From IMG/VR virus record IMGVR_UViG_2778261256_000010, positions 1 to 14,526 of that record: a stretch of 14,526 nucleotides of DNA; one strand, written 5' to 3'. The DNA comes from a virus (Duplodnaviria > Heunggongvirae > Uroviricota > Caudoviricetes). Positions 2,544 through 14,526 of this stretch are shown here, piece by piece (position 1 is the stretch's first letter; every line of letters begins with the position of its first letter). The notes beneath the pieces were generated by a model, which worked only from the letters and a program-made list of their open reading frames with translations, was not told the DNA's origin and ran no database searches. A program made the position numbers and the translations under genes.

Positions 2544-3866
2544 ATGGAAAAACTGATCGCCCTAAAGCACAAGCTGGATGCTATTAAAACGATGGGAACC
2601 AACGCCAAGAAAGAGGCGCTGGCCAATCTGGATGAATTTGAACAGAGCATGGTCTCGCTAATGCTCAATCCATTCATTCGATTCGGTGTGAAGAAGTACA
2701 AAGTGGCCGAGCCACTCGATACTTCCGTACCCAGCGACCAGAAGGTAGTAGATCTGCTGGAGAAGCTGGCAGCGCGCGAACTGACCGGGAACATCGCTAT
2801 TGCTGCTGTCGAATCACTCGTTGCCTCGATGTGCGCTGACGGGCAGGACGTGTTTCGTCGCTTCCTGCTGAAAGATCCGAAAGCCGGTGTCGGCATCAGC
2901 CTGTGCAACAAGGTGTTCGAAAACCCAATTCCGAAGTTTGAGGTACAGCTGGCGTCTCCGTACAAGGAGAAAGGCGACAAATACCCATTTAAACCAAATC
3001 CAAAGGCCAAGTGGCCAATGATCGGCAGTCTCAAACTCGATGGTCTCCGGGTTATCTGCGAAGTCATCGTGGACGAGGGTGAGGTCAATTTCCTGACGCG
3101 CACCGGCAATCCGATTACGTCACTCGATCACCTTAAACCAGCCATGCTGGAGCGGGGCAGACTCTCCGGCTTCAATCACATCTTCTTCGATGGAGAGGGC
3201 ACTGCAGGTACATTCAACCAGTCAGTGTCGGCGCTTCGTAAGAAGAACGTGAAAGCCATTGGTGCCGTTTACCACATTTTCGATTTCTTCTTACCGGAGT
3301 GGCGTGCTCAAGCAAAAAGCAAAGAGTACCTGAAGACCGGTATGAAGCTGAAAGAGCGCCTGGCTATGCTGGTGGCGTTGTTCCGCAACACTTGCGTGGA
3401 AGATTATGCGCAAGATATCCACCTTCATCCGTTCTACATCATCCATAGCCACGAAGATTTCATCGAACGTTTCATGAAGCGACTGGACGAGAATGAAGAG
3501 GGAGAGATGGACAAAGATCCGGATTCAGTTTACGAGTTCAAACGTACCCGCAGCTGGTGGAAGCTGAAAGACGAGGATTCAGAAGACGGTGAAATCATCG
3601 ACTTCGAGCCTGGCGATCCGGATTCTGGATTTGCGCATACGCTAGGCAAGATAGTGATTCGTCTGGAGAACGGCGTCATCGTTCGTGCCAGCGGTATCAA
3701 GCATAAATACCTGGATGAAATCTGGAACAATCAGGAGAAGTATCGTGGACGCATCGTTGAGGTTCACTGCCATGAGAAAACGCCAGATGGTAGCTTGCGT
3801 CATCCACGTCTGAAGTGGCCTAAATGTCTTCGAGATACCGAAGATCGTATTGGAGATAAAGAATGA
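2544..3866 (+). CDS. ATP-dependent DNA ligase, phage T4 gp30-like
   Basis: RBS GGAGG upstream. Nucleotidyltransferase motif I KLDGLR (K164, 3033-3050), FFDGEG, WWKLK, and the C-terminal LRHPRLKWPKCLRD (motif VI-like). The N-terminal domain aligns by eye with T4 ligase (ARELTGNIAIAAVESL...ISLCNKVF...LASPYKEKGDK versus T4 TRKLTGNAAIEELTGY...VSIANKVW...LASSYDEKGINK). Confidence 0.85.
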   Translation: MEKLIALKHKLDAIKTMGTNAKKEALANLDEFEQSMVSLMLNPFIRFGVKKYKVAEPLDTSVPSDQKVVDLLEKLAARELTGNIAIAAVESLVASMCADGQDVFRRFLLKDPKAGVGISLCNKVFENPIPKFEVQLASPYKEKGDKYPFKPNPKAKWPMIGSLKLDGLRVICEVIVDEGEVNFLTRTGNPITSLDHLKPAMLERGRLSGFNHIFFDGEGTAGTFNQSVSALRKKNVKAIGAVYHIFDFFLPEWRAQAKSKEYLKTGMKLKERLAMLVALFRNTCVEDYAQDIHLHPFYIIHSHEDFIERFMKRLDENEEGEMDKDPDSVYEFKRTRSWWKLKDEDSEDGEIIDFEPGDPDSGFAHTLGKIVIRLENGVIVRASGIKHKYLDEIWNNQEKYRGRIVEVHCHEKTPDGSLRHPRLKWPKCLRDTEDRIGDKE

Positions 3867-4042: not shown

Positions 4043-4238
4043 ACGAGAGAAGGAAACCCTGCGTGAAATTAGCAAGTGGAAGGAGTTCTACGCCAACTGG
4101 AAGCCGAAGACCAGAGCCAAACTGGAGCGCATGAATCTTGTCGCCAACGTTTCTCCAAAGGGATGTATTGAGAACTATCAACTGACTGAAAAAGGTTATT
4201 TGTTGTTGCAGCAATTGACTGAGGCGGGGGCGCACTGA
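4026..4238 (+). CDS. small hypothetical protein (70 aa)
   Basis: Strong RBS AAGGAG (4013-4018) 7 nt upstream of ATG 4026; soluble, charged sequence; stop overlaps the next start. Confidence 0.55.
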   Translation: MIMLSKREKETLREISKWKEFYANWKPKTRAKLERMNLVANVSPKGCIENYQLTEKGYLLLQQLTEAGAH

Positions 4239-4390
4239 TGATTCCATACATCATTTTATCTTTTACTGGTGGCGTGGGCCTCGGCCTCGCAATCTGCCGC
4301 GCCCTGGTCCAGCAGGAACTGCAAACCAAAACACTTCGTGTCGGTAAGCGTGTGTATCGGGTTGTTCACGAGACGGGAGTGCGAAAATGA
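4238..4390 (+). CDS. small membrane protein (50 aa), not in the supplied ORF track
   Basis: ATG 4238 overlaps the upstream stop (TGATG); MIPYIILSFTGGVGLGLAICRAL is a TM helix; stop TGA 4388-4390 overlaps the ATG of the next gene (4387). Confidence 0.4.
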   Translation: MIPYIILSFTGGVGLGLAICRALVQQELQTKTLRVGKRVYRVVHETGVRK

Positions 4391-4916: not shown

Positions 4917-5071
4917 TCAATGAAGTAACAGAATGGGCGGTTGGTTTCATCATTCCATTCACCCATCCCGGTTTCAGCTGACCGTCCATTCTGTTACGTC
5001 ATTTCCATTACTTATGTCGTTTATACTTGGGTTAAAAGCGGCGACGTAACCCGGCTGACTTGGTTAGTCAG

Positions 5072-5189
5072 CACATAACGTTGAGATCACTGATTTTTCT
5101 TAAAATCATACAGGCGATTCCACATAGCTGTAGCGACTGATCAATATGTTGGGTTGAACATTAATCGGTTCAGTGATCTCAACGTTGTG
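5072..5189. repeat. 17-bp perfect inverted repeat (5076-5092 / 5169-5185; 20 of 21 if extended) flanking a 76-bp spacer
   Basis: AACGTTGAGATCACTGA and its exact reverse complement TCAGTGATCTCAACGTT; three GATC sites within the element. Confidence 0.55.
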
Positions 5190-5435
5190 AAAGCAGGATT
5201 AATTAACCCTCTAGTGAAAACATTGTTGCCTTTATTGCCCCTGACTTCACAACATGTATGATTCCATACATCCAATAAGATCGAAGAATCTAACGGCAAT
5301 CAACCACCGAGAAAGATTCCAGATCTTCGCTCATATGAGCGAGCCACATACCTCGTCTGGCACTAACGTAAAGTGCAAGTTGCGGGAAAGTTTCTGGCTG
5401 CCTGGTTGTCCATAAGCTAGTACCGCCGCGAAAAT

Positions 5436-5510
5436 GATGGTGTAGCTCAGTGGTAGAGCGGTTGACTGTTAATCAACTGGTCGGTGGTTCGAGTCCACCC
5501 ACCATCGCCA
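5436..5510 (+). tRNA. tRNA-Asn (anticodon GTT at 5468-5470)
   Basis: Folded by hand into a full cloverleaf: 7-bp acceptor stem GATGGTG/CACCATC, D-arm GCTC-AGTGGTA-GAGC, anticodon stem GTTGA/TCAAC with loop CTGTTAA, T-arm GGTGG-TTCGAGT-CCACC, discriminator G, encoded CCA. Confidence 0.9.
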
Positions 5511-5764: not shown

Positions 5765-6313
5765 ATGACGATTATGGAGTCTATCGTGAAATTTAAAATC
5801 CAGCATTTGCAGGCAGCAGTGGCACTGGTTCTTGCCAGTATCCAGCCGCAACCCAAAGCGGTTGCGTGTCAGCCTACGATTGTAGAACGGGTTTATGAGA
5901 TGGGCGCTAGAGTCAACAAAACCGACATCAGTGATCTTACAGCTGCTCTCAATGAATTGGCTAAAGAACTGCGTTCAAGCCGCGCTGAACTTGCTCATTA
6001 TGCTGACACTGACTTCTTTGCTGCTATCAAAGTAGCGGAAGAAATTAAGAATCAAACTATTCATGTAGCCGGTATCGCAGAATCTTTTGTTTTGATGTTA
6101 CCTGAAAAAGACGTCATCATGTCTTACGACAAAAACACTGTTGAGTTTGCGTTTTTTAAGGCTATTAAAATGGTCAGTATTGCGACCAAAAACTATCTCA
6201 ATCTGATTGATCAGATTACACGCACTTCTGTAGTGCGTGACTCTGGTGTCAACCTTTTAGCCATGAACCATCTATTAGAGACTGGCAACAAGGCTGCGGC
6301 TAAATGGCATTAA
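5765..6313 (+). CDS. putative antitoxin-like partner of the YafO-family toxin (182 aa; true start uncertain)
   Basis: ORF ends 10 nt inside the toxin gene (6304-6313 overlap), the usual toxin-antitoxin coupling. No recognisable Phd/YefM or RHH sequence signature; much larger than E. coli YafN (~97 aa). Confidence 0.45.
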   Translation: MTIMESIVKFKIQHLQAAVALVLASIQPQPKAVACQPTIVERVYEMGARVNKTDISDLTAALNELAKELRSSRAELAHYADTDFFAAIKVAEEIKNQTIHVAGIAESFVLMLPEKDVIMSYDKNTVEFAFFKAIKMVSIATKNYLNLIDQITRTSVVRDSGVNLLAMNHLLETGNKAAAKWH

Positions 6314-6720
6314 CGGCTGAATACAGTCAAGTTACGTGGGATGATTTTTTTCAGCCCACTTTTGTCGTTTACCCTGACCTAGAAAGTCAGCTCAAATCCG
6401 AGTTCATTACTTACAAATCAACTGGCGCACCATCTAATCTTCTTGGACGAGATGCGCCATTTGACTTCCCGCCGTTCGCCGTTGATGCTAATGTCCAGCA
6501 TATTCACGTCAATTTGCATTTCCAGCTTACCTGGAACGCAAGGCAAGAGAACTACAACCGAACCTCAAACCACTATCTCGTTTATACCGAGCACATGTGG
6601 GATAGCGGGCGTTTTTTGCTGATGGGGCTAGTCACTCCAGCTCACGATCGTATGCCAGCAAGAGATACTAGGTTGCTCAGCTACTTCGCTGAAGTCGCAG
6701 AAGGTTTCCATTCTAGCTGA
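6304..6720 (+). CDS. yafO: YafO-family type II toxin (ribosome-dependent mRNA interferase family)
   Basis: Aligned by eye to my recollection of E. coli YafO: FITYKSTGAPSNLLGRDAPFD vs FISYKRDGVLPDIFGRDALYD; VQHIHV vs VAHIHL; RTSNHYLVY vs RTNDEAHLVY; FLLMGLVTPAHDRMPARD vs WLLIAILKPEPHKLARD. Confidence 0.7.
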   Translation: MALTAEYSQVTWDDFFQPTFVVYPDLESQLKSEFITYKSTGAPSNLLGRDAPFDFPPFAVDANVQHIHVNLHFQLTWNARQENYNRTSNHYLVYTEHMWDSGRFLLMGLVTPAHDRMPARDTRLLSYFAEVAEGFHSS

Positions 6721-6887
6721 ACTTTAGCGATCGTCATCTTCTTCATCATTCTTTTTCTTCTAACAAATCATTCTCATCAATCTGGCTCAGATGGCATTCC
6801 AAAGTTGGCGTTATTAGGCGCTTTTTACTATTTAGCGTTTAAGATGGTTTGTCTACATAATTTATTCAGAATTTACGTAAGCTATAT

Positions 6888-6922
6888 AAATGATTCCATA
6901 CTTGTAAGGTATGGAATCATTT
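6888..6922. promoter_or_regulatory. perfect 14-bp inverted repeat AAATGATTCCATAC-N7-GTATGGAATCATTT (candidate operator)
   Basis: Exact palindrome about 100 bp upstream of the recombinase ORF; shares the core TGATTCCATAC with the 15-bp direct repeats at 4238 and 5258. Confidence 0.5.
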
Positions 6923-6973
6923 TCAAAAACAGTCTATTTTACTGTTGATCATACAAAAACTGAGGCCTAACAC

Positions 6974-6992
6974 ACTGTTTATAAATACAGTA
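6974..6992. promoter_or_regulatory. LexA (SOS) box-like site, CTGT-N8-ACAG
   Basis: ACTGTTTATAAATACAGTA against the gammaproteobacterial consensus TACTGTATATATATACAGTA; AT-rich spacer; about 30 bp upstream of ATG 7021. It is the only CTGT-N8-ACAG I found in the window. Confidence 0.5.
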
Positions 6993-7020
6993 AAAACAGG
7001 CTTCACTCAGTGAGTGGACT

Positions 7021-8124
7021 ATGAAAAACACTTTTGATAAAGCACGCGCAGCAGAAAACACCTCTAGAGAAGCCATCGAGTATCTCGAACGCGCTTCCGG
7101 TTTGTCAGCAGTGTCGACCACCAATTTCGACGGTGACATGTCGTTTTCTTCCGCATTCATGTTATTCACTCGCTTATCTTTGCTGATAACGAGACGTCGA
7201 CCTGAAATAGCTGTTCATTGTATTTTGATACATGTAATGCCGCATATCTGTGAAGTAAAAGTAAGTGACATTAGTAGGGTTTTAGTCAACCAGCTGGTGA
7301 ACCCATTAATACTTGAGGGCAAGATCGTCCAGGGCAGACGTGTGTTCTCGCTGATGAAGCAGTTTCTCAGTTGGTGTGCATTTCAGGGCTTAATTGATAC
7401 ATCCCCATTGAACGATATGTCGCTTAACAGAGTAGCCGGTGGCGCGAAGCCCACGCCGCGCGAGCGCAAACTGACCGACGCAGAGGTCTGGGTCTTTTGG
7501 AATGTATGGGACTACTTCAACGTATGTGAGGGTACAAAGTGGGCGGCCAGATTATGCCTTGTAGCGGCCAGACGACCAGATGAAGTGCTCCGAGCTAAAA
7601 GATCAGAATTCAACCTCGAATATAATTTATGGAATCAAGGAACGAGGAATAAATCGGCTCGCCAGCACTCGTTACCATTAAGCCCGCTAATGCGCAAATG
7701 TGTTGAGGAGCTGATCAAATACGGAAAAGGCAGCCAGTGGCTTGTTCCTTCAAACAAGAAACAGGGTGAGGATGTGCCAATGTCTAAGGTGGCCATATCA
7801 CAGGCGTTGAGAAGGATTTTAGAACGTCCAGAGTTGATGGAGCTTGAGCCATTTACCCCCCGAGATTTGCGTCGTACTGCGCGTAGTTACTTCCCCGCGT
7901 TAGGCATAAGTCAGGAGGTATCCCGCAAAATTATGAACCACAGTCTTGAGGGGATAGATCGAGTATACGATCGACACGATTATATAGACGAGATGCGAGA
8001 CGCCTTAAACAGTTTTTCGGCGTACATCGCATCAATCGTAGAGAAACAGGATTTAGAGGAGATAGATCATAAGTTCAAGGGAGATCGACTCGCTACTGAG
8101 CTAATCCGTGTAAATTTCTCATAG
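7021..8124 (+). CDS. tyrosine recombinase/integrase, P4-like catalytic core; arm-binding N-terminal domain absent, first ~60 aa unrelated
   Basis: Core-binding-like segment from about aa 70 (HVMPHICEVKVSDISRVL...VFSLMKQFLSWCAFQGLIDTSPLNDMS); catalytic signatures ARRPDEVL (box I Arg), FTPRDLRRTA (box II, with R where His is usual), NHS, and RVYDRHDY (catalytic Tyr). Confidence 0.65.
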   Translation: MKNTFDKARAAENTSREAIEYLERASGLSAVSTTNFDGDMSFSSAFMLFTRLSLLITRRRPEIAVHCILIHVMPHICEVKVSDISRVLVNQLVNPLILEGKIVQGRRVFSLMKQFLSWCAFQGLIDTSPLNDMSLNRVAGGAKPTPRERKLTDAEVWVFWNVWDYFNVCEGTKWAARLCLVAARRPDEVLRAKRSEFNLEYNLWNQGTRNKSARQHSLPLSPLMRKCVEELIKYGKGSQWLVPSNKKQGEDVPMSKVAISQALRRILERPELMELEPFTPRDLRRTARSYFPALGISQEVSRKIMNHSLEGIDRVYDRHDYIDEMRDALNSFSAYIASIVEKQDLEEIDHKFKGDRLATELIRVNFS

Positions 8125-8517
8125 CGACTTGATTGCCTCAACAACCCGCTCCGACGCACCACGTTGGTCACCGAAACGTCGACGGAAGGCTTCCAGAACT
8201 AGTTTTTCATCTTTAGTCAGAGGGGCTGTGCCTTCGTCGCGAAAAAACGCTAACAGCTCTGGATGACGCTCTTCCAGCACCATTAGCATCAATCGGACCG
8301 AATCGGCATCCAATGCTTTAGCCAACGCTCTGACCTTGTCGATCGGAAGCGGGATTTTGCCGCTCTTGATAAGTGAAAGATTGTTAGGGTTTTTATAGCC
8401 TGCTTCTTTCGCGATGGTCGCCTGGCTTTTCGGAGAAATCGCGATTAAAGCGTCAATGTAAGCAGCGTAGCGACCTACTTTAGCTTCTGTTGTTTCGTTG
8501 GTAGCCATAATTATCAA
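8119..8517 (-). CDS. helix-turn-helix (XRE/Cro-like) transcriptional regulator
   Basis: SQATIAKEAGYKNPNNLSLIKSGKIPLPIDKVRALAKAL is a canonical HTH; convergent with and overlapping the recombinase 3' end by 6 bp. Start may be the second ATG (MATNE...). Confidence 0.65.
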   Translation of the reverse strand: MIIMATNETTEAKVGRYAAYIDALIAISPKSQATIAKEAGYKNPNNLSLIKSGKIPLPIDKVRALAKALDADSVRLMLMVLEERHPELLAFFRDEGTAPLTKDEKLVLEAFRRRFGDQRGASERVVEAIKSL

Positions 8518-8764
8518 CCTGCGTGTTTTGATTTTATTTGGTAAGTGCTTACTGATATTACATCAAAGGTTAGTGTTGTAAAGACTTATCTATTTTTTTA
8601 CGTAGGTTTACTGACCGCAAAAGGCTTCATTAATAGACAACTATCTAAAAAATAACTCATTTAAGAACTTAAAACTAAGTTGTATTTGATATATAAGTAT
8701 TCCGTATTGATACAATAGGTAGTAGTATTGCAAGGCATTTACGTGTTCAGTTGGATGATATGAA

Positions 8765-8977
8765 ATGAAAAAAATAACTTCTAATTTGATCGCCCTTGAG
8801 GTCGGACATACGGTTTCAATTGACGATGATGGGGCAGCAGCCATACTCACTGAACTGCCAACAAAGTCTTTGTTACTTGACATGAAAGACGCAACCGCAT
8901 ACATCTTTGAGCTAAAGGGCAAGTGCTTCACTCTCATCAATACCGGCTGCGGTTCAGTAGCCGTCCGCACAAGTTAA
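8765..8977 (+). CDS. small hypothetical protein (70 aa)
   Basis: RBS-like GGATGA upstream; sits just upstream of the vWA gene; could be spurious (AT-rich surroundings). Confidence 0.35.
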   Translation: MKKITSNLIALEVGHTVSIDDDGAAAILTELPTKSLLLDMKDATAYIFELKGKCFTLINTGCGSVAVRTS

Positions 8978-9002: not shown

Positions 9003-9037
9003 GCCTGTACGAACAGATTAGATGCCTGTTCGTACAG
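9003..9037. promoter_or_regulatory. tandem near-palindromic sites GCCTGTACGAACAG / GCCTGTTCGTACAG (candidate operator pair)
   Basis: CTGTACGAACAG (9005-9016) and its exact reverse complement CTGTTCGTACAG (9026-9037), 9-bp spacer, about 55 bp upstream of the preferred start of the vWA gene. Confidence 0.45.
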
Positions 9038-9090
9038 TGATAAATTACGCACATCAGAAAACAAATTGTTTTAACAACAAGGGAATTCTA

Positions 9091-11319
9091 ATGTCCAAAA
9101 AAACCACCAAAGCTGTACTGAAAGAGGTGCAGGATTTTCGCGACTGTGTAAAACGAGTTGTAGCGATGCTTTCAGGTAAACAGATACCTGTTGCAGAACG
9201 AGGCAATGAAGCATATGTCCGCTATAACCGGCGCGGCGAACCAGTGCTGGTAAACATCCCATCTATACCGGACGACGCGTCGCCAACCCTCATGAACGCA
9301 GTGCGTGGTTTTCTCGACCATGAGGTGGCCCATATTCTCTTTACTGAACCGAAAGTCGCAATGCAGATGCGCGAAAGAGGAAAGGCTCCGTCTACGGGGC
9401 TTTGGAATGCGCTGGAAGACGTTTTTATTGAACGCAGAATGGGGCAGGTCTTTAACGGAACCCGGCGTAATTTACTTGCAACACAGAGTCTGGTTATCGA
9501 CAAATACTTCAGGAATAAAGTACCAGAAGCGGTTTTAGCCTGTCACGGAGACCAGCGTGAATTGTTTTTGAAATTCTTCCTTTGCCCGGTCGTCCGCGCC
9601 TGGGATGGACAAAGCCCCTTCATCGATTTTATGGAAGAACACTGGCGCCTTATCGAGAGGCCGGTAGCCTTACTAAAGGAGCATGGTATAGACGTGGCCG
9701 TTCGCAATATGTCGAACACTGAGGATTGCGTGAAGGTCGCTGCTGCTATAGCCCAAATCATGCAGGATATGAAAGACAAGCCAGAGGGCAAATTACCAGA
9801 ACTTAAATCATCTGCCAGAAAGCCGTCGGAGAGCAAAGACGAGTCCGAGGAAACGCCAGAATCAGGTGACGAGCCGTCTCATGGTGACTCTGCATCTAAG
9901 CCTGCCAAAGGCGAAGGCGATGACAAGGAAGAACGAGAAGATGATGCATCAGAAGAGGAAGATTCTGGGGATTCCGATTTGCCTGATTCGTTAGATAAGG
10001 ACTTACCTACACACGTTAAAGATATTAGTGATACAGAAAGTAAATATACAGAAGCAGGCCACGAAGAGTCAGGAGACACCCCAGAATCCGATGCTATCGG
10101 CATGAAATCAAGTGACTCTGACACCGATGGTGATGGCGGTGAGGACTCCGATACTGATCGTGGGGAAACTGAAGAAGACGTCGAAGGCAAAAAAAATAAA
10201 GATGGTGCGGAAGTGCCCAAAGACAGTGAGTCTGGCTTTGTTCCTGCGCCGGATGAAATGACTCTGGAGGAGGCGCTAAAGGCGCTCGACGAGATGGAAG
10301 ACGGAATCGGTGAAATGACCGAAGACGCACTGTCGGCCACCATCAGCAAAGAGCTTATGAGCGTCTCACCTTCTGATTATCGGCCATACGATCGATCATA
10401 CGACTTTATCGGGTTGATTGATGGAGCCGAAGAGCATGTGAAGCGCACCAGAAAGACGTTCGGTGCAATACCAATGCACTCACCAGTCGACCGCTACCGT
10501 ATGGTGCCAGAAGGCAGAAAACTCTTTGAACTGAAAATCGAAAAACATCTGTCTGCAGGCGTTTCTTCGACGCTGGCCAAAGACCTGGAGCGGGCCATCG
10601 CCAGCCGCAACCGAGTTCAGTTTATACCTGGTCAGAGGCGTGGGCGGATACATGGCGCGAGCCTGTATCGTCTGGCAATGAACGACGACCGAGTGTTCCG
10701 CAAGAAGGAAGACCATAGAGCGGTGAACGCGTGTGTCCAGCAAGTCATCGACTTGTCCGGCTCAATGGATGGCGTGAAGATTCAACTGGCCCTAGCCAGT
10801 GCCTATACCATTGCGGATGCTTTAGATCGTATCAATGTCCCCAACATCATCACCGGCTTTACCACGTTCGGTAGCCCAGATTATGAAACCAGGTCGAAGC
10901 GCGGGTTTACACGCTTCGAGGCGCTCATGCTGCCCATTATCAAAAACTGGAATGAGAAAGCAAACTCTCCAGAGATCCGTGCTCGCATGGGATGCGTATG
11001 TGAGACGTTCCCCCTGCTCAATAACGTCGATGGTGAGAGTGTCGCGCAACTGGCTACCCTGTTTGCAGGGCGAATGGAGGACAAAAAGATCATGCTGGTT
11101 ATGAGTGATGGGGAGCCATGTGCTACAGGTAGTGGATTCCATCAGCATTTACGAACCGTCACCAAAGAAATTGAGACCTTGAGCGACATCGAACTGATGG
11201 CTATCGGCATTCTGACCGACGAACCACGGCGTTACTACAAAAATTACGCACTGGTTAACAGTGTTGAAGAGTTAGGGCCGTCAGTCGTCACTGAGTTATC
11301 TCGTATCATTCTTGGGTAA
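9091..11319 (+). CDS. CobT/BchD-like architecture: N-terminal HExxH (zincin-like) module, ~170-180 aa acidic Ser/Asp/Glu-rich linker, C-terminal von Willebrand factor A domain
   Basis: Preferred start ATG 9091 (RBS AAGGGA 6 nt upstream); the track ATG 9022 lies inside the palindrome and lacks an RBS. HEVAH at 9319-9333 with Glu in NALEDVFIERR about 25 aa downstream (gluzincin-like spacing). vWA MIDAS DLSGS (10750-10764), then GFTT and MSDGEP. Confidence 0.75.
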   Translation: MSKKTTKAVLKEVQDFRDCVKRVVAMLSGKQIPVAERGNEAYVRYNRRGEPVLVNIPSIPDDASPTLMNAVRGFLDHEVAHILFTEPKVAMQMRERGKAPSTGLWNALEDVFIERRMGQVFNGTRRNLLATQSLVIDKYFRNKVPEAVLACHGDQRELFLKFFLCPVVRAWDGQSPFIDFMEEHWRLIERPVALLKEHGIDVAVRNMSNTEDCVKVAAAIAQIMQDMKDKPEGKLPELKSSARKPSESKDESEETPESGDEPSHGDSASKPAKGEGDDKEEREDDASEEEDSGDSDLPDSLDKDLPTHVKDISDTESKYTEAGHEESGDTPESDAIGMKSSDSDTDGDGGEDSDTDRGETEEDVEGKKNKDGAEVPKDSESGFVPAPDEMTLEEALKALDEMEDGIGEMTEDALSATISKELMSVSPSDYRPYDRSYDFIGLIDGAEEHVKRTRKTFGAIPMHSPVDRYRMVPEGRKLFELKIEKHLSAGVSSTLAKDLERAIASRNRVQFIPGQRRGRIHGASLYRLAMNDDRVFRKKEDHRAVNACVQQVIDLSGSMDGVKIQLALASAYTIADALDRINVPNIITGFTTFGSPDYETRSKRGFTRFEALMLPIIKNWNEKANSPEIRARMGCVCETFPLLNNVDGESVAQLATLFAGRMEDKKIMLVMSDGEPCATGSGFHQHLRTVTKEIETLSDIELMAIGILTDEPRRYYKNYALVNSVEELGPSVVTELSRIILG

Positions 11320-11355: not shown

Positions 11356-11413
11356 CAGCCTAATATATTTCTATAAGATATACCCCACAAACGACAAACA
11401 GTAAGGAAAAAAC

Positions 11414-11680
11414 ATGACCGCTACTGCACTACAGCAAGAAGAACATTTGCCGGAAGCCATCGTCTGCAAGTGGTGTGGCAAATCCTTTCATTACCTGAAA
11501 TCCCATATCTCTATGGGCCGTTGCGAGAATATTCCTGAGTCTGCGAAGGGTCTGGACGTGGACGAAGTGGTGAAGATGTACACCTCTGCGTTTCCAGATG
11601 AACCAACGATCTCTCGCACGGCACTGGCCAAACTCAATGAGAAGGGGTCGTTTGCGGGAGGGGGCGGAATCCTACGCTAA
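11414..11680 (+). pseudogene. Ros/MucR-type zinc-finger mini-protein, 3' end replaced by the Tn3-family inverted repeat (native part 11414-11643)
   Basis: RBS AAGGA 6 nt upstream. IVCKWCGKSFHYLKSHI matches the Ros/MucR zinc-finger IVCLECGGSFKSLKRHL, and SRTALAKLNEKG matches ARSRLAKEMGLG. From codon 78 the ORF is encoded by the transposon IR (GSFAGGGGILR). Confidence 0.5.
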
Positions 11681-11681
11681 G
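11644..11681. repeat. Tn3-family 38-bp terminal inverted repeat (GGGG...ACGCTAAG)
   Basis: GGGGTCGTTTGCGGGAGGGGGCGGAATCCTACGCTAAG; outer GGGG at 11644; the tnpA stop (CTA on +, 11677-11679) lies inside the IR, as is typical of the family. Confidence 0.8.
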
Positions 11682-14449
11682 GCTTTGGCCAGCGATATTC
11701 TCCGGTGAGATTGATGTGTTCCCATCCGAGCGGCGAAACATGGGCCAAGAGATCGGGCGATAGCAGCTTTCCATCGCGTTTCTGGTTTGCAACGACCTCG
11801 CCGAGCTTCATGGTGTTCCAGAAGATGATGATGGCGGCGAGCAGATTCATGCCGGCGATGCGGTAATGCTGGCCTTCGGCGGAACGGTCGCGGATTTCAC
11901 CGCGGCGGTGGAAGCTGATTGCCCGCTTCAGCGCATGATGAGCTTCGCCTTTGTTGAGCCCGATCTGGGCACGCCGTTGGAGTTCGGCATCCAGAATCCA
12001 GTCGATCATGAACAGGGTGCGCTCGACGCGACCGACTTCCCGCAGGGCTGTCGCGAGCTCGTTCTGCCGCGGATAGGAGGCGAGTTTCCGCAGAATCTGG
12101 CTTGGCGCGACGGTCCCGGCAGCAATGGTGGCGGCGATGCGCAGGATGTCGGGCCAATTGCGCTCGATCATGGCTTGGTTGACCTTTCCGCCGATCAACG
12201 CTCGCAGGTGCGCCGGGGCGGCCGACGGATTGAACGCGTAGAGCCGTTTGGATGGCAGGTCGCGGATGCGCGGAGCGAACCGGTAGCCGAGAATGGCACA
12301 TGCGGCAAAGACGTGATCGGTGAAGCCGCCCGTGTCGGTGAACTGCTCGCGGATATGGCGTCCAGCATCGTTCATCAGCAGGCCATCGAGGATGTAAGGC
12401 GCTTCGCTTGCCGTTGCAGGAATCACCTGGGTTGCGAACGGCGCATATTGGTCGGAGACGTGGCTATAGGCTTTCAGGCCCGGGGTATTGCCATATTTCG
12501 CGTTGACCAGGTTCATGGCCTCACCTTGCTCTGTAGCGACGAAGAACTGTCCGTCGCTCGAAGCCGACGTGCCCATGCCCCAGAACCGGGCCATGGGTAA
12601 CGCTGCCTGTGCCTCGACCACCATGGCCAGCGCCCGGTCATAGGCTTCGCCCTCGACATGCCACCGTCCAATGCGGATCAATTCCCAGAAGGTGTGGGTG
12701 TTTGTCGCATCCGCCATTTTGCGCAAGCCGAGGTTGATCCCTTCCGCCAAGATAACGTTCATTAGCCCGATCCGGTCAGCGCAGGGTGCTCCTGTGCGCA
12801 GATGGGTGAACGCTTCGGTGAAGCCGGTCGCCGCATCCACCTCCAGCAGGAGATCGGTGATGCGCGTGGGCGGGATCTGCTTGTAGAGATCGAGCACCAG
12901 ATCTTCGGCGCCTGTCGGCGCGGCGGCTTCGAGTTTCTCGATATGCAGAACGCCGTTTTCAATCGACCCGCCCGGGATCGTGCCTGCGCGAGCGGCACGG
13001 CCAAGCTCGCGCAACCGCATGTCGAGGCGAGCTTGCCGGTCTGCCAGCCATTCCTCCGGCCGCAATGGCACAGCGAGACGACCGCCTTCCGCGATGGATT
13101 GTGCCGGAACGAGTGCGTGTTTCAGATCGCCATAGCGCCGGGACCTAGTAAGCCAGACATCTCCGGAGCGGAACGCATCGCGCAGATGGAACAGCACCGC
13201 GATCTCCCATAGGCGAGCGTCGCCAGCCCTCTGGGCCCGAAGGTGGCGATGCCATTTCGAGCTGGGCCGCAAGAAGCTGGTCATCGCGGCATCGTTCAAA
13301 CCGGTACGAAGGGCCGTCACCGCTTCCAGAAGCGGCAGTGCAACGGGCGCAGCTCGCAGATCGAGCAGGCGCAACATGCGTGGAGCGTATCGGCGGAAGC
13401 GGTGATAACCGTCGAGCACATGATTGAGCGGATCGTCGGCCATGGTGGCGGTCAGCCTGGTTGCCATTGCAACAAGGGTTTTTAAGCCGTCCCACCCTGA
13501 CCCACTCGCGATGACATCGCCCAGCGGCTGGCCATCATCCTGTGCATCGACCAGGGCGCCCCCGATCTCGGCGAAGGATTTCAGGGTGTCACGCACCACC
13601 CCCGCTTCGTCTGCGACCTTTGCATGGCAAATACGCTCCGAAGCACGGTAGAGACGGCCGACGATCCGGTCGTGGGTTTCGACCACTGCGTCGGCCAACA
13701 TCGCCTGCCATTCCGAGACGCAAACAGCCAAGATCGCAAGCCGCCTGTCCTCCGGGAGATCGCGCATGCCGTCGGCATAATACCGTTCACCCTGCCTGCG
13801 CAGACGAGTCACCCGATGGGCAGGAACGCCGGCAAGCAGATCCTCGGGGAGATCGATGCGTTGCAGATATTCGAGCCGGTCGAGCAGCCGGTTGGCCGAC
13901 GAAGAGTTCGAGCCAGGCTCGAACTGGCGCAGCCACACAAAACGGGTCACCCGATCATCAGCCGTCTCCTCGAGCAATGCCAGCAACTGTTCTCGGATCG
14001 ACATAGGCAGCCGACTGGCGATCCTCGTCTCGATGCGTCGCTCGGCATCGACGAGAGCCGCGGCACAAAGCCGCTCGATCGTGGATGTCGCGGGAAGGAC
14101 AGTGCGGGTGCGTCGGCACTCGGCTACGAAGCGACGGGCGATATCCTCGTTCGACACCGCCATCTCGGCTTCTCGGAACAACCATTCCTTCAGCTCGCTC
14201 GCACCACGTCCGGAGAAGGTGCGGAAGCCGTAGAGCCCCCGTAACTCGGCAAGATGCTCGTGCCGTGTTTCCTCGCGGGCAGCATAGTCTACGAGATCGT
14301 CGGCACCCAGGCCAAGCTGCGCTCCGATAAATTCGATGACCTCTGCAGGGATCAGTTCGCCTGGAGCCAGCACCCGGCCGGGATAGCGCAGGACACACAA
14401 TTGCAGGGCGAAGCCGAACCTGTTGTGAGCGCGCCGACGCAGCCTGATA
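11644..14449 (-). mobile_element. Tn3-family transposon remnant (one IR plus 5'-truncated tnpA; no res, tnpR or cargo in view)
   Basis: High-GC block bounded by the 38-bp IR on the left and the IS10 outside end on the right. Confidence 0.8.
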
Positions 14450-14505
14450 CTGATGAATCCCCTAATGATTTTTATCAAAATCATTAAGTTAAGGTAGATA
14501 CACAT
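11677..14505 (-). CDS. tnpA: Tn3-family transposase TnpA, 5'-truncated (first ~18 codons of the ORF are IS10-derived; native part 11677-14449)
   Basis: 942-aa ORF; C-terminus ...LSPLGWEHINLTGEYRW is the Tn3-family signature; N-proximal SIRLRRRAHNRFGFALQLCVLRYPG matches Tn21 TnpA near residue 37-60 (recalled), so about 35 N-terminal residues are missing. Opposite-strand ORFs in this block are GC-rich shadows. Confidence 0.9.
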   Translation of the reverse strand: MCIYLNLMILIKIIRGFISIRLRRRAHNRFGFALQLCVLRYPGRVLAPGELIPAEVIEFIGAQLGLGADDLVDYAAREETRHEHLAELRGLYGFRTFSGRGASELKEWLFREAEMAVSNEDIARRFVAECRRTRTVLPATSTIERLCAAALVDAERRIETRIASRLPMSIREQLLALLEETADDRVTRFVWLRQFEPGSNSSSANRLLDRLEYLQRIDLPEDLLAGVPAHRVTRLRRQGERYYADGMRDLPEDRRLAILAVCVSEWQAMLADAVVETHDRIVGRLYRASERICHAKVADEAGVVRDTLKSFAEIGGALVDAQDDGQPLGDVIASGSGWDGLKTLVAMATRLTATMADDPLNHVLDGYHRFRRYAPRMLRLLDLRAAPVALPLLEAVTALRTGLNDAAMTSFLRPSSKWHRHLRAQRAGDARLWEIAVLFHLRDAFRSGDVWLTRSRRYGDLKHALVPAQSIAEGGRLAVPLRPEEWLADRQARLDMRLRELGRAARAGTIPGGSIENGVLHIEKLEAAAPTGAEDLVLDLYKQIPPTRITDLLLEVDAATGFTEAFTHLRTGAPCADRIGLMNVILAEGINLGLRKMADATNTHTFWELIRIGRWHVEGEAYDRALAMVVEAQAALPMARFWGMGTSASSDGQFFVATEQGEAMNLVNAKYGNTPGLKAYSHVSDQYAPFATQVIPATASEAPYILDGLLMNDAGRHIREQFTDTGGFTDHVFAACAILGYRFAPRIRDLPSKRLYAFNPSAAPAHLRALIGGKVNQAMIERNWPDILRIAATIAAGTVAPSQILRKLASYPRQNELATALREVGRVERTLFMIDWILDAELQRRAQIGLNKGEAHHALKRAISFHRRGEIRDRSAEGQHYRIAGMNLLAAIIIFWNTMKLGEVVANQKRDGKLLSPDLLAHVSPLGWEHINLTGEYRWPKP

Positions 14506-14526
14506 CTTGTCATATGATCAAATGGT
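14450..14526 (+). mobile_element. IS10-like outside end (5' portion of a second IS10 copy, continuing past the window)
   Basis: CTGATGAATCCCCTAATGATTTTTATCAAAATCATTAAGTTAAGGTAGATACACATCTTGTCATATGATCAAATGGT matches my recollection of the IS10 outside end and pIN/pOUT region with a few substitutions. Confidence 0.8.

Follow-up and report, generated by a model that had tools for sequence, protein, structure and literature searches.

A Cre/loxP-like arrangement of an arm-less tyrosine recombinase and a candidate recombination site in SSU5/pHCM2-like phage-plasmids

The 14,526-nucleotide stretch of DNA analysed here (IMG/VR record IMGVR_UViG_2778261256_000010, referred to throughout as the window) is an SSU5/pHCM2-like phage-plasmid, and this work concerns one of its genes, int, together with the palindrome and the putative promoter that precede it. 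On comparative evidence, the open reading frame (ORF) is an intact, strongly conserved tyrosine recombinase, the palindrome is best read as the recombinase's own recombination site, and the promoter carries a putative LexA box, such that the three would form a module made up of an arm-less recombinase, a 35-bp lox-like site and a promoter repressible within the SOS response. The function that we consider most likely for this module, with moderate confidence, is the resolution of plasmid multimers and not integration. In other words, in our reading it would be a Cre/loxP-like single-site system that has arisen from P4-type integrases independently of Cre, and the system appears to be undescribed so far. 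A previous sequence-only reading of the same region had proposed either a decayed integrase remnant or a repurposed, DNA-damage-regulated recombinase, and the latter comes close to what is put forward here, given a putative LexA box that is both good and conserved.

The window is at least 99% identical to 44 plasmids of Escherichia and Shigella, some 360 more show 60–90% identity, and at 70–75% are found the phages Cyrano (a complete 108-kb genome in which RepA and ParA/ParB are present), PhiR41_1, CMS-2020a and pJN2-26, as well as several Klebsiella phage-plasmids.

Of the six active-site residues of the recombinase, five are canonical, and the first His is occupied by Arg281, so that box II reads TPRDLRRT (the RDLRRT in place of HDLRRT had been correctly pointed out beforehand); the YDRHDY motif is also present. 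Pfam recognizes the catalytic domain (Phage_integrase, PF00589, residues 173–319, 36.2 bits with a cut-off of 27.1), the core-binding domain falls under its cut-off (Phage_int_M, PF22022, residues 71–133, 20.4 bits with a cut-off of 27, a domain precomputed for many members of the family), and the arm-binding domain (PF13356, formerly DUF4102) has no Pfam match in the window recombinase, whose score against the NCBIfam model PRK09692 is 31 bits, the cut-off being 434. A search of 5.8 billion proteins yielded 113 family clusters (43–90% identity, nearly all of 340–380 aa), none of them with PF13356, and beyond these the score drops sharply to P4-type integrases that do have this domain and share at most 33% identity. 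Likewise, in a representative library of 1.84 billion proteins the family is composed of two full-length clusters, with 568 and 515 bits, after which the score falls to 205 bits, and the matches that come after the family are of ~400 aa, with the alignment starting at around residue 90–130. The nearest outgroup is that of the ~400-aa P4-type integrases with PF13356, and the P4-like catalytic core that the sequence-only reading had recognized is confirmed.

The same reading had maintained that the arm-binding domain is missing and that the first ~60 aa are unrelated to it. Both the absence and the unrelatedness stand, and it is the length that has to be corrected: the profile-profile alignment with a P4-like integrase (hhalign, window residues 39–344 against residues 113–450, probability 100, E 1e-53, 35% identity) begins at residue 39, and the unrelated portion thus comprises ~38 aa. 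Nor is this portion a divergent arm-binding domain, as the AlphaFold model (pLDDT 84.6) shows no beta-sheet there, only three short helices that precede those of the core-binding domain. The best fold match of the model is lambda Int residues 75–356 (E 1e-6), a stretch with the core-binding and catalytic domains that leaves out the arm domain, and the structures of lambda Int, Tn1549 Int, IntI and Xer are all matched with a Foldseek probability of 1.0. From these comparisons, the family would descend from P4-type integrases, would be restricted to the Enterobacterales, and would have replaced the ~110 aa of arm domain and linker with ~38 aa of its own.

This replacement is not recent. Residues R185, K211, R284 and Y316 are invariant across the family and H307 nearly so, while Arg281 is found in 107 of 107 family proteins (42–100% identity), as opposed to an outgroup of 146 proteins of which 143 have His, two Arg and one Ala. 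The dN/dS of the whole gene is 0.035–0.07, both family-specific ends included, when compared with Cyrano, PhiR41_1 and a Y. pestis plasmid copy, with synonymous sites near saturation (pS ~0.6), and the first 38 codons give 0.04–0.16; the length of int and its start codon are conserved across the family. As these features are present family-wide and dN/dS is low, the loss of the arm domain and the change from His to Arg are old, fixed and selected. The idea of a chimera, in which a foreign 5′ region had recently been fused to a truncated int, is not supported when the N-terminus, the length and the start codon are common to a family that has diverged to 42% identity and purifying selection acts on the first 38 codons. 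Catalysis would have to proceed with Arg281, and in this respect it should be considered that the type IB topoisomerases include active enzymes with Lys at the position of the box II His.

The perfect 14-bp palindrome, already noticed in the sequence-only reading, is present, and by our own arithmetic an inverted repeat of 14 + 14 would be expected by chance ~5e-5 times per spacer length in 14.5 kb. An alignment of five relatives with 70–75% DNA identity places the start of the homology precisely on the outer border of the left arm; all five keep the same 12-nt arms, and each has a 7-bp spacer of its own. The search for int loci in one genome per bacterial and archaeal species produced 63 loci, from Yersinia pestis, Kluyvera, Buttiauxella, Chimaeribacter, the megaplasmids of Pantoea and Rahnella, Erwinia, Ewingella, Hafnia, Xenorhabdus, Photorhabdus and Morganella, and in 60 of the 63 a palindrome with a 7-bp spacer is situated ~45–150 nt upstream of int. 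In IMG/VR, 100 contigs contain the exact site of clade A (defined below), one per contig, with int adjacent except in three loci cut at the contig end. Altogether the palindrome accompanies int in ~160 loci, with invariant arms and a variable spacer in the ~110 loci of clade A. Three paralogues discussed later apart, it always accompanies the gene, even in ~60 loci without a LexA box, so the earlier suggestion that it arrived as part of a foreign 5′ block does not hold.

The arms exist in two forms. In clade A (at least 58% identity to the window) they are ATGATTCCATAC / GTATGGAATCAT, and in clade B (45–50% identity) TGACTCCAGAC / GTCTGGAGTCA; between one and the other, positions 5 and 10 of the 12-mer are altered, both arms alike (ATGATTCCATAC to (A/G)TGACTCCAGAC). 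More than 20 different spacers are found across the two clades, and only these two arm sequences over ~160 loci. It is because the arms are invariant within clades even though the synonymous sites of int approach saturation, the spacer varies freely, and arms of 12–14 bp flank a spacer of 7 bp, that the palindrome is interpreted as a lox-like core site, and this architecture fits that of the simple sites of Cre/FLP type (inverted arms of 11–14 bp, a spacer of 6–8 bp and an arm-less recombinase). Int would bind to the arms, and the argument for a bound protein rests on the invariance of the arms within clades and on the lone arm copies described below, which are unable to pair. As for the number of sites, the Cyrano genome has one full site, and among complete E. 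coli genomes the site is present in 252 of 5,426, each with exactly one copy, always on a plasmid and never on the chromosome.

Two peculiarities of the site merit description on their own. In Biostraticola tofi (locus L033, positions 2870–2903) the left arm, GACTCCATAC, mixes clade-A and clade-B bases and the right arm is pure clade B; this asymmetric site may represent a step between the two arm specificities. Moreover, among close relatives the spacer is found in both orientations relative to int, as CTACTAT in Cyrano and ATAGTAG in PhiR41_1, and also, in both clades, as TTAATAG and CTATTAA. Conservative site-specific recombination could not produce such a flip, and one possibility is that of hairpin-loop flipping by template switching.

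Between the site and int lies a candidate sigma-70-type promoter with a putative LexA box, the core of which begins 1 nt after the −10 and ends 30 nt before the ATG. The LexA box ahead of int that had been placed at 6974–6992 is confirmed as CTGT-N8-ACAG (with the core coordinates given in Table 1), and its 20-mer coincides with the E. coli consensus TACTGTATATATATACAGTA at 17 of 20 positions; the approximate heterology index is 4.0, to be taken as indicative only, and falls inside the range of the 16 E. coli boxes with which it is compared (0.8–8.5). The motif occurs once in the window where 0.12 would be expected, and at least once in 23 of 200 shuffles, which is not significant alone; it carries weight because of its position at the promoter and its conservation in relatives. 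In 94 loci the same layout is found, namely the site, 23–26 nt, TTGATC, 17 nt, TAATAT, A, the LexA box, 26–31 nt and the ATG. Of 43 unique upstream regions from the sub-clade that shares 78% identity or more, 39 have a perfect box, for which 12 different N8 fillers are seen, and none of 60 upstream regions of more distant members of the family has it. As the box is present in the sub-clade and absent from all 60 of these distant regions, it is a later addition, limited to the enteric SSU5-like sub-clade (Escherichia/Klebsiella/Salmonella/Yersinia). The −10 is TAACAC in the lineage of the window, TAATAT in ~85 relatives and TAACAT in a sister lineage, and a scan for promoter consensus missed the int promoter of the window because of its weak −10, so that it was the comparison with relatives that identified this promoter. 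Both the activity of the promoter and the binding of LexA are predicted from these sequence features.

In Cyrano there is another near-consensus LexA box (TACTGTATGTGTATACAGTA, at 89277, or L170:39277), 34 bp upstream of CYRAN_98, a gene annotated as "LexA-like peptidase S24", which suggests that these phage-plasmids have a small regulon under host LexA. Cyrano itself is induced by ciprofloxacin (PMC9928086), an indirect support for the predicted release from LexA after DNA damage.

From these elements we infer a mechanism, in all its steps from binding onward and up to the resolution function itself. Int monomers would bind each of the arms of 12–14 bp and two sites would synapse, Tyr316 would cleave at the edges of the spacer, and the strands would be exchanged across 7 bp, as in Cre/loxP or FLP/FRT. 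The substrate would be the two directly repeated sites of a plasmid dimer and the outcome the monomers of a low-copy phage-plasmid; the resolution of dimers is considered the most likely reaction because the site is found once per replicon and in plasmids only. The cyclisation of incoming phage DNA and cointegration with other carriers of the site would be possible by-products. In the enteric sub-clade, LexA would hold Int at a low level in unstressed cells and the SOS response would raise it, at a time when RecA-driven recombination would be generating more multimers and the phage-plasmids would be induced.

In addition to the full site, the window contains lone copies of a single arm, extended to ATGATTCCATACATC. 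Two of them are exact. The first overlaps the start codon of a small ORF, keeps its nucleotide sequence in relatives with differing flanks, and is possibly associated with the recombinase; the second is non-coding, and all 15 of its 15 positions are identical in Cyrano amid intergenic DNA that has otherwise clearly diverged. A third copy, degenerate, is found inside int. In relatives there are further lone copies inside int and inside a dnaE-like gene ~6 kb downstream (for example L001:15486, − strand), and the absence of this downstream copy from the window is attributed to a transposon block that stands where, in the relatives, CobS-like and dnaE-like genes follow. The strands form a pattern, in that the copies on the left side are all + and those on the right all −, converging on the full site. 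Cyrano has exactly three, at 37802 (+), 38814 (+) and 47010 (−), within 9.2 kb around int. Lone copies are conserved, then, in coding and non-coding contexts over ~9 kb around int, and only in the phage-plasmids of clade A; the clade-B Providencia plasmid pPROV236-2 has none within 14 kb on either side. These copies were also considered as cassette boundaries, which is rejected as homology continues on both sides and two are inside conserved genes, and as polar elements spread over the genome like KOPS or Ter, which is rejected too, given that Cyrano has three copies only, confined to 9.2 kb around int.

Several observations weigh against plasmid multimer resolution by a module of this type, or against parts of it. 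Symmetric changes in the arms would equally preserve a hairpin, so their covariation alone is no proof that a protein binds to them. In three Chimaeribacter paralogues (L049, L055 and L062, with 46–48% identity, on large contigs) there is no recognizable palindrome of this kind within 700 bp upstream. Lone arms up to 6 kb away are not to be expected in a simple resolution of Cre/lox type, and SOS control is unusual for a housekeeping resolvase. The −10 of the window has two changes, including that of the critical final T, so that an intact gene probably has a weakened promoter. The Tyr316 loop of the AlphaFold model is of low confidence, and this limits any view of the geometry of Arg281. Finally, the flank of the site that does not contain int, at 6600–6887 in the window, is hypervariable, which hints at reactions beyond the resolution of dimers.

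This last point is the basis of the alternative that most deserves consideration, even though we give it a rather low probability: that the int-site module would be an SOS-triggered point of swap or capture for phage-plasmids and enterobacterial megaplasmids, an integron-like docking platform devoid of attC sites, where intermolecular recombination between replicons would repeatedly replace the non-int flank, with the lone arms as extra Int-binding sites for regulating or directing the reaction. Such an exchange would be compatible with the resolution of dimers. The 300 bp to the left of the site sort into 27 unrelated clusters in clade A (103 loci) and 29 in clade B (52 loci), as opposed to 2 and 5 clusters, respectively, on the int side; the homology of relatives starts precisely where the left arm does; the cargo adjacent to the site is moron-like (a YafO toxin module, tRNAs and glutaredoxin); and the succession of variable DNA, site, LexA-box promoter and int pointing away recalls the layout of integrons. 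Guerin and co-workers are said to have found, in 2009, that the integron intI is SOS-controlled. However, neither a second full site nor an attC-like partner was found in IMG/VR contigs, Cyrano or the complete E. coli genomes, the lone arms do not delimit cassettes, each being found in a syntenic gene or in intergenic DNA that is conserved, with the homology extending past it in both directions, and phage-plasmids often have variable DNA next to conserved modules with no site-specific mechanism at work. The strand pattern of the lone arms could also evoke an invertase, with Int inverting a segment of ~8 kb between oppositely oriented one-armed sites, as the sfx sites of the Rci shufflon have one conserved arm and a 7-bp spacer. 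We regard such a switch as highly improbable, since each left flank pairs with the same right flank (71 distinct lone-copy contexts), no inversion appears in more than 100 loci, and inversion would disrupt both the dnaE-like coding sequence and int, each of which houses a lone copy; an inversion between lone arms was rejected, as no hybrid flanks exist.

A different kind of alternative denies that Int acts on the palindrome at all, this being an operator for another protein (the XRE repressor, or a regulator that also recognizes the lone copies) or a terminator, with Int acting elsewhere. It is unlikely in our opinion, although it is not without arguments: the site precedes the −35 by 22 nt, a position from which it could regulate int, the RNA hairpin is stable (−21 kcal/mol, z = −5.4), and asymmetric lone arms scattered over ~9 kb recall the C1 repressor of P1, which uses dispersed single operators. 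The XRE gene is the only other conserved neighbour, but ~50 loci keep the site and int without this gene or any phage context, and the promoter region of the XRE gene contains another, unrelated conserved palindrome, which makes the XRE-operator version unlikely. The terminator version is rejected, because the stem is not followed by a conserved T-run and a separate terminator-like hairpin already follows yafO. Furthermore, a structural hairpin would tolerate many compensatory variants, whereas only two arm sequences exist over the ~160 loci, and arms of 12–14 bp with a 7-bp spacer are typical of the core sites of tyrosine recombinases. A third group of alternatives takes Int for an ordinary phage integrase, either working or dead. 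The descent of its catalytic and core-binding domains from P4-type integrases, the annotation of several relatives as "integrase" and the presence of some family members on contigs of 0.5–0.9 Mb (possibly chromosomes or megaplasmids) could lead one to see in the palindrome the core of an attP destined for a chromosomal attB. There is little to sustain this, and we hold it to be quite improbable: the arm-binding domain is missing, the symmetric site is unlike an attP with arm sites, of the 504 places matched in the 5,426 complete E. coli genomes none is chromosomal, the carriers having exactly one intact site each, the elements replicate as plasmids (as the RepA and ParA/ParB of Cyrano indicate), and no excisionase gene was noticed beside int. 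A decayed and inactive remnant, in which the change from His to Arg would have killed catalysis, is the least credible of all: the absent His, the weakened −10 of the window and the poor NCBIfam score would be in its favour, but the gene has the low dN/dS, the Arg fixed in 107 of 107 proteins, the conserved length and start codon and the other conserved catalytic residues already mentioned, and active relatives may have a basic or other residue in place of the box II His (those with Lys being the case cited above).

The preferred reading, that of a Cre/loxP-like system for multimer resolution, gains in definition when placed beside the systems already known. The resemblance to Cre/loxP of P1 concerns arrangement: an arm-less tyrosine recombinase beside a single site with inverted arms of 13–14 bp and a short asymmetric spacer, borne by a plasmid prophage in which each replicon has one site, and with multimer resolution and cyclisation as the expected roles; Dre/rox, Vika/vox, Panto/pox and YR1-12 are the Cre-type relatives named in this comparison. 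The differences concern lineage and detail, since the window system has a 7-bp and not an 8-bp spacer, P4-type descent, Arg in place of His289 and a LexA box in the promoter. With Cre, Foldseek gives E values of 0.03–0.7 at 11–15% identity, as opposed to 1e-6 for lambda Int, and a sequence search of the PDB with the family profile found no match, Cre included. The screen of Cre-type recombinases by Jelicic et al. considered 8-bp spacers only and included neither of the two arm sequences (PMC10250229). The system would work, by analogy, like Cre/loxP or a plasmid resolution system, yet it would not be a member of the Cre family. The closest relatives in sequence are the integrases of P4/CP4-57 type (PF13356 + PF22022 + PF00589), with which it has xDLRRT and YDRHDY in common; unlike these, it has ~38 aa of short helices instead of the arm domain and linker (~110 aa), Arg instead of His, an extra conserved C-terminal tail, and a symmetric plasmid palindrome instead of an attP with arm sites and a tRNA attB, and it is never found on E. 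coli chromosomes.

With the resolvases of plasmids (ResD/rfsF of F, Rsd/crs of the Salmonella virulence plasmid, XerCD with cer, psi or dif) it would have in common the proposed function and the presence on large low-copy plasmids of one site per replicon beside the recombinase gene. The Xer systems employ host enzymes and accessory sequences, and we know of no LexA-controlled case among ResD/rfsF, Rsd/crs and XerCD. To the integron IntI/attI with its SOS-controlled Pint it is similar in being arm-less, in having a LexA box over the promoter and a site between the gene and variable cargo, and in fold (match to 2a3v, E 1.5e-4), and it is dissimilar in that no attC-like partners or cassette array were found and in that its site is a perfect duplex palindrome and not a folded single-stranded substrate. 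Rci/sfx of IncI plasmids has the same spacer length of 7 bp and one-arm sites that resemble the lone copies, in contrast to which the principal site here is fully symmetric and more than 100 loci give no sign of inversion.

The literature search provided no description of such a system for phage-plasmids of the SSU5/pHCM2/pMT1 type, nor of how their multimers are resolved, and the literal arm sequences matched unrelated primers only. These phage-plasmids, of frequent occurrence in E. coli, Klebsiella, Salmonella and Yersinia pestis, transport resistance and toxin-antitoxin cargo. The consequences could be of various types: (i) the recombinase and its site are a candidate orthogonal pair for genome engineering, with a 7-bp spacer, a fixed Arg at a His position held to be "invariant", and two natural classes of specificity; (ii) the family is a case study of how integrases lose their dependence on arms; (iii) SOS control together with a hypervariable flank leads to a hypothesis that ties DNA damage to plasmid maintenance or gene exchange; (iv) and finally, if the module were an exchange point, it would be an unrecognised route for the flux of cargo (toxin-antitoxin modules, tRNAs and resistance genes) in plasmids found in ~5% of complete E. 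coli genomes. The features of the window are collected in Table 1.

Table 1. Position of the recombinase module, the arm copies and the surrounding features in the window
Feature	Position	Strand	Remarks
Candidate lox-like recombination core site	6888–6922		35 bp; 98 nt upstream of the int start codon
Left arm	6888–6901		AAATGATTCCATAC
Spacer	6902–6908		TTGTAAG
Right arm	6909–6922		GTATGGAATCATTT
Family-invariant 12-mer, left	6890–6901		ATGATTCCATAC
Family-invariant 12-mer, right	6909–6920		GTATGGAATCAT
Candidate sigma-70-type int promoter	6945–6973	+	−35 TTGATC 6945–6950; 17 nt; −10 TAACAC 6968–6973
Putative LexA (SOS) box, 20-mer	6973–6992		CACTGTTTATAAATACAGTA
Putative LexA box, core	6975–6990		CTGTTTATAAATACAG
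Arm-less tyrosine recombinase (int)	7021–8124	+	367 aa
int N-terminus, family-specific	7021–7134	+	aa 1–38
int core-binding domain			aa 39 to ~135
int catalytic domain			aa ~150–344
int C-terminal tail, family-specific			aa 345–367
Active site R185	7573–7575
Active site K211	7651–7653
Active site R281 (for His)	7861–7863
Active site R284	7870–7872
Active site H307	7939–7941
Active site Y316	7966–7968
Lone arm copy	4238–4252	+	ATGATTCCATACATC; overlaps the start codon of a 50-aa ORF (MIPYI...)
Lone arm copy	5258–5272	+	ATGATTCCATACATC; non-coding, ~165 nt upstream of tRNA-Asn
Degenerate arm copy inside int	7627–7638	−	TTGATTCCATAA; 2 mismatches; most relatives GATGTATGGAATCAA (codons D-V-W-N-Q)
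ATP-dependent ligase gene	2544–3866
tRNA-Asn	5436–5510		Phage-borne; 1.4 kb from the palindrome, no overlap with it
YafO-family toxin gene	6304–6720
Terminator-like hairpin	6807–6822		3′ of yafO
XRE-type "putative repressor" gene	8119–8517	−	Convergent with int
Small ORF	8765–8977		Divergent from the XRE gene
CobT-like protein gene	9022–11319
Tn3-family transposase gene	11677–14505	−	NCBIfam equivalog, 1001 bits

With regard to the surroundings of the module, the Tn3-family transposase is located in a block with 62% GC (~11400–14526), inserted after the CobT-like gene, at a point where the relatives have a CobS-like AAA ATPase gene and then the dnaE-like gene. Upstream of the XRE gene, at 8540–8553, is the palindrome GGTAAGTGCTTAC(C/T), inside a 45-nt invariant block between this gene and the small ORF; it is probably the operator and promoter of the XRE repressor and is unrelated to the int site. 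In the Rfam scan of the window the tRNA alone was matched. A long stem at 5060–5205 (AACGTTGAGATCACTGA ... TCAGTGATCTCAACGTT), upstream of a lone arm and of tRNA-Asn and without a match in Rfam, has a fold z-score of −4.4 and shows compensatory changes in Cyrano (GGCCATTAC / GTAGTGGCC).

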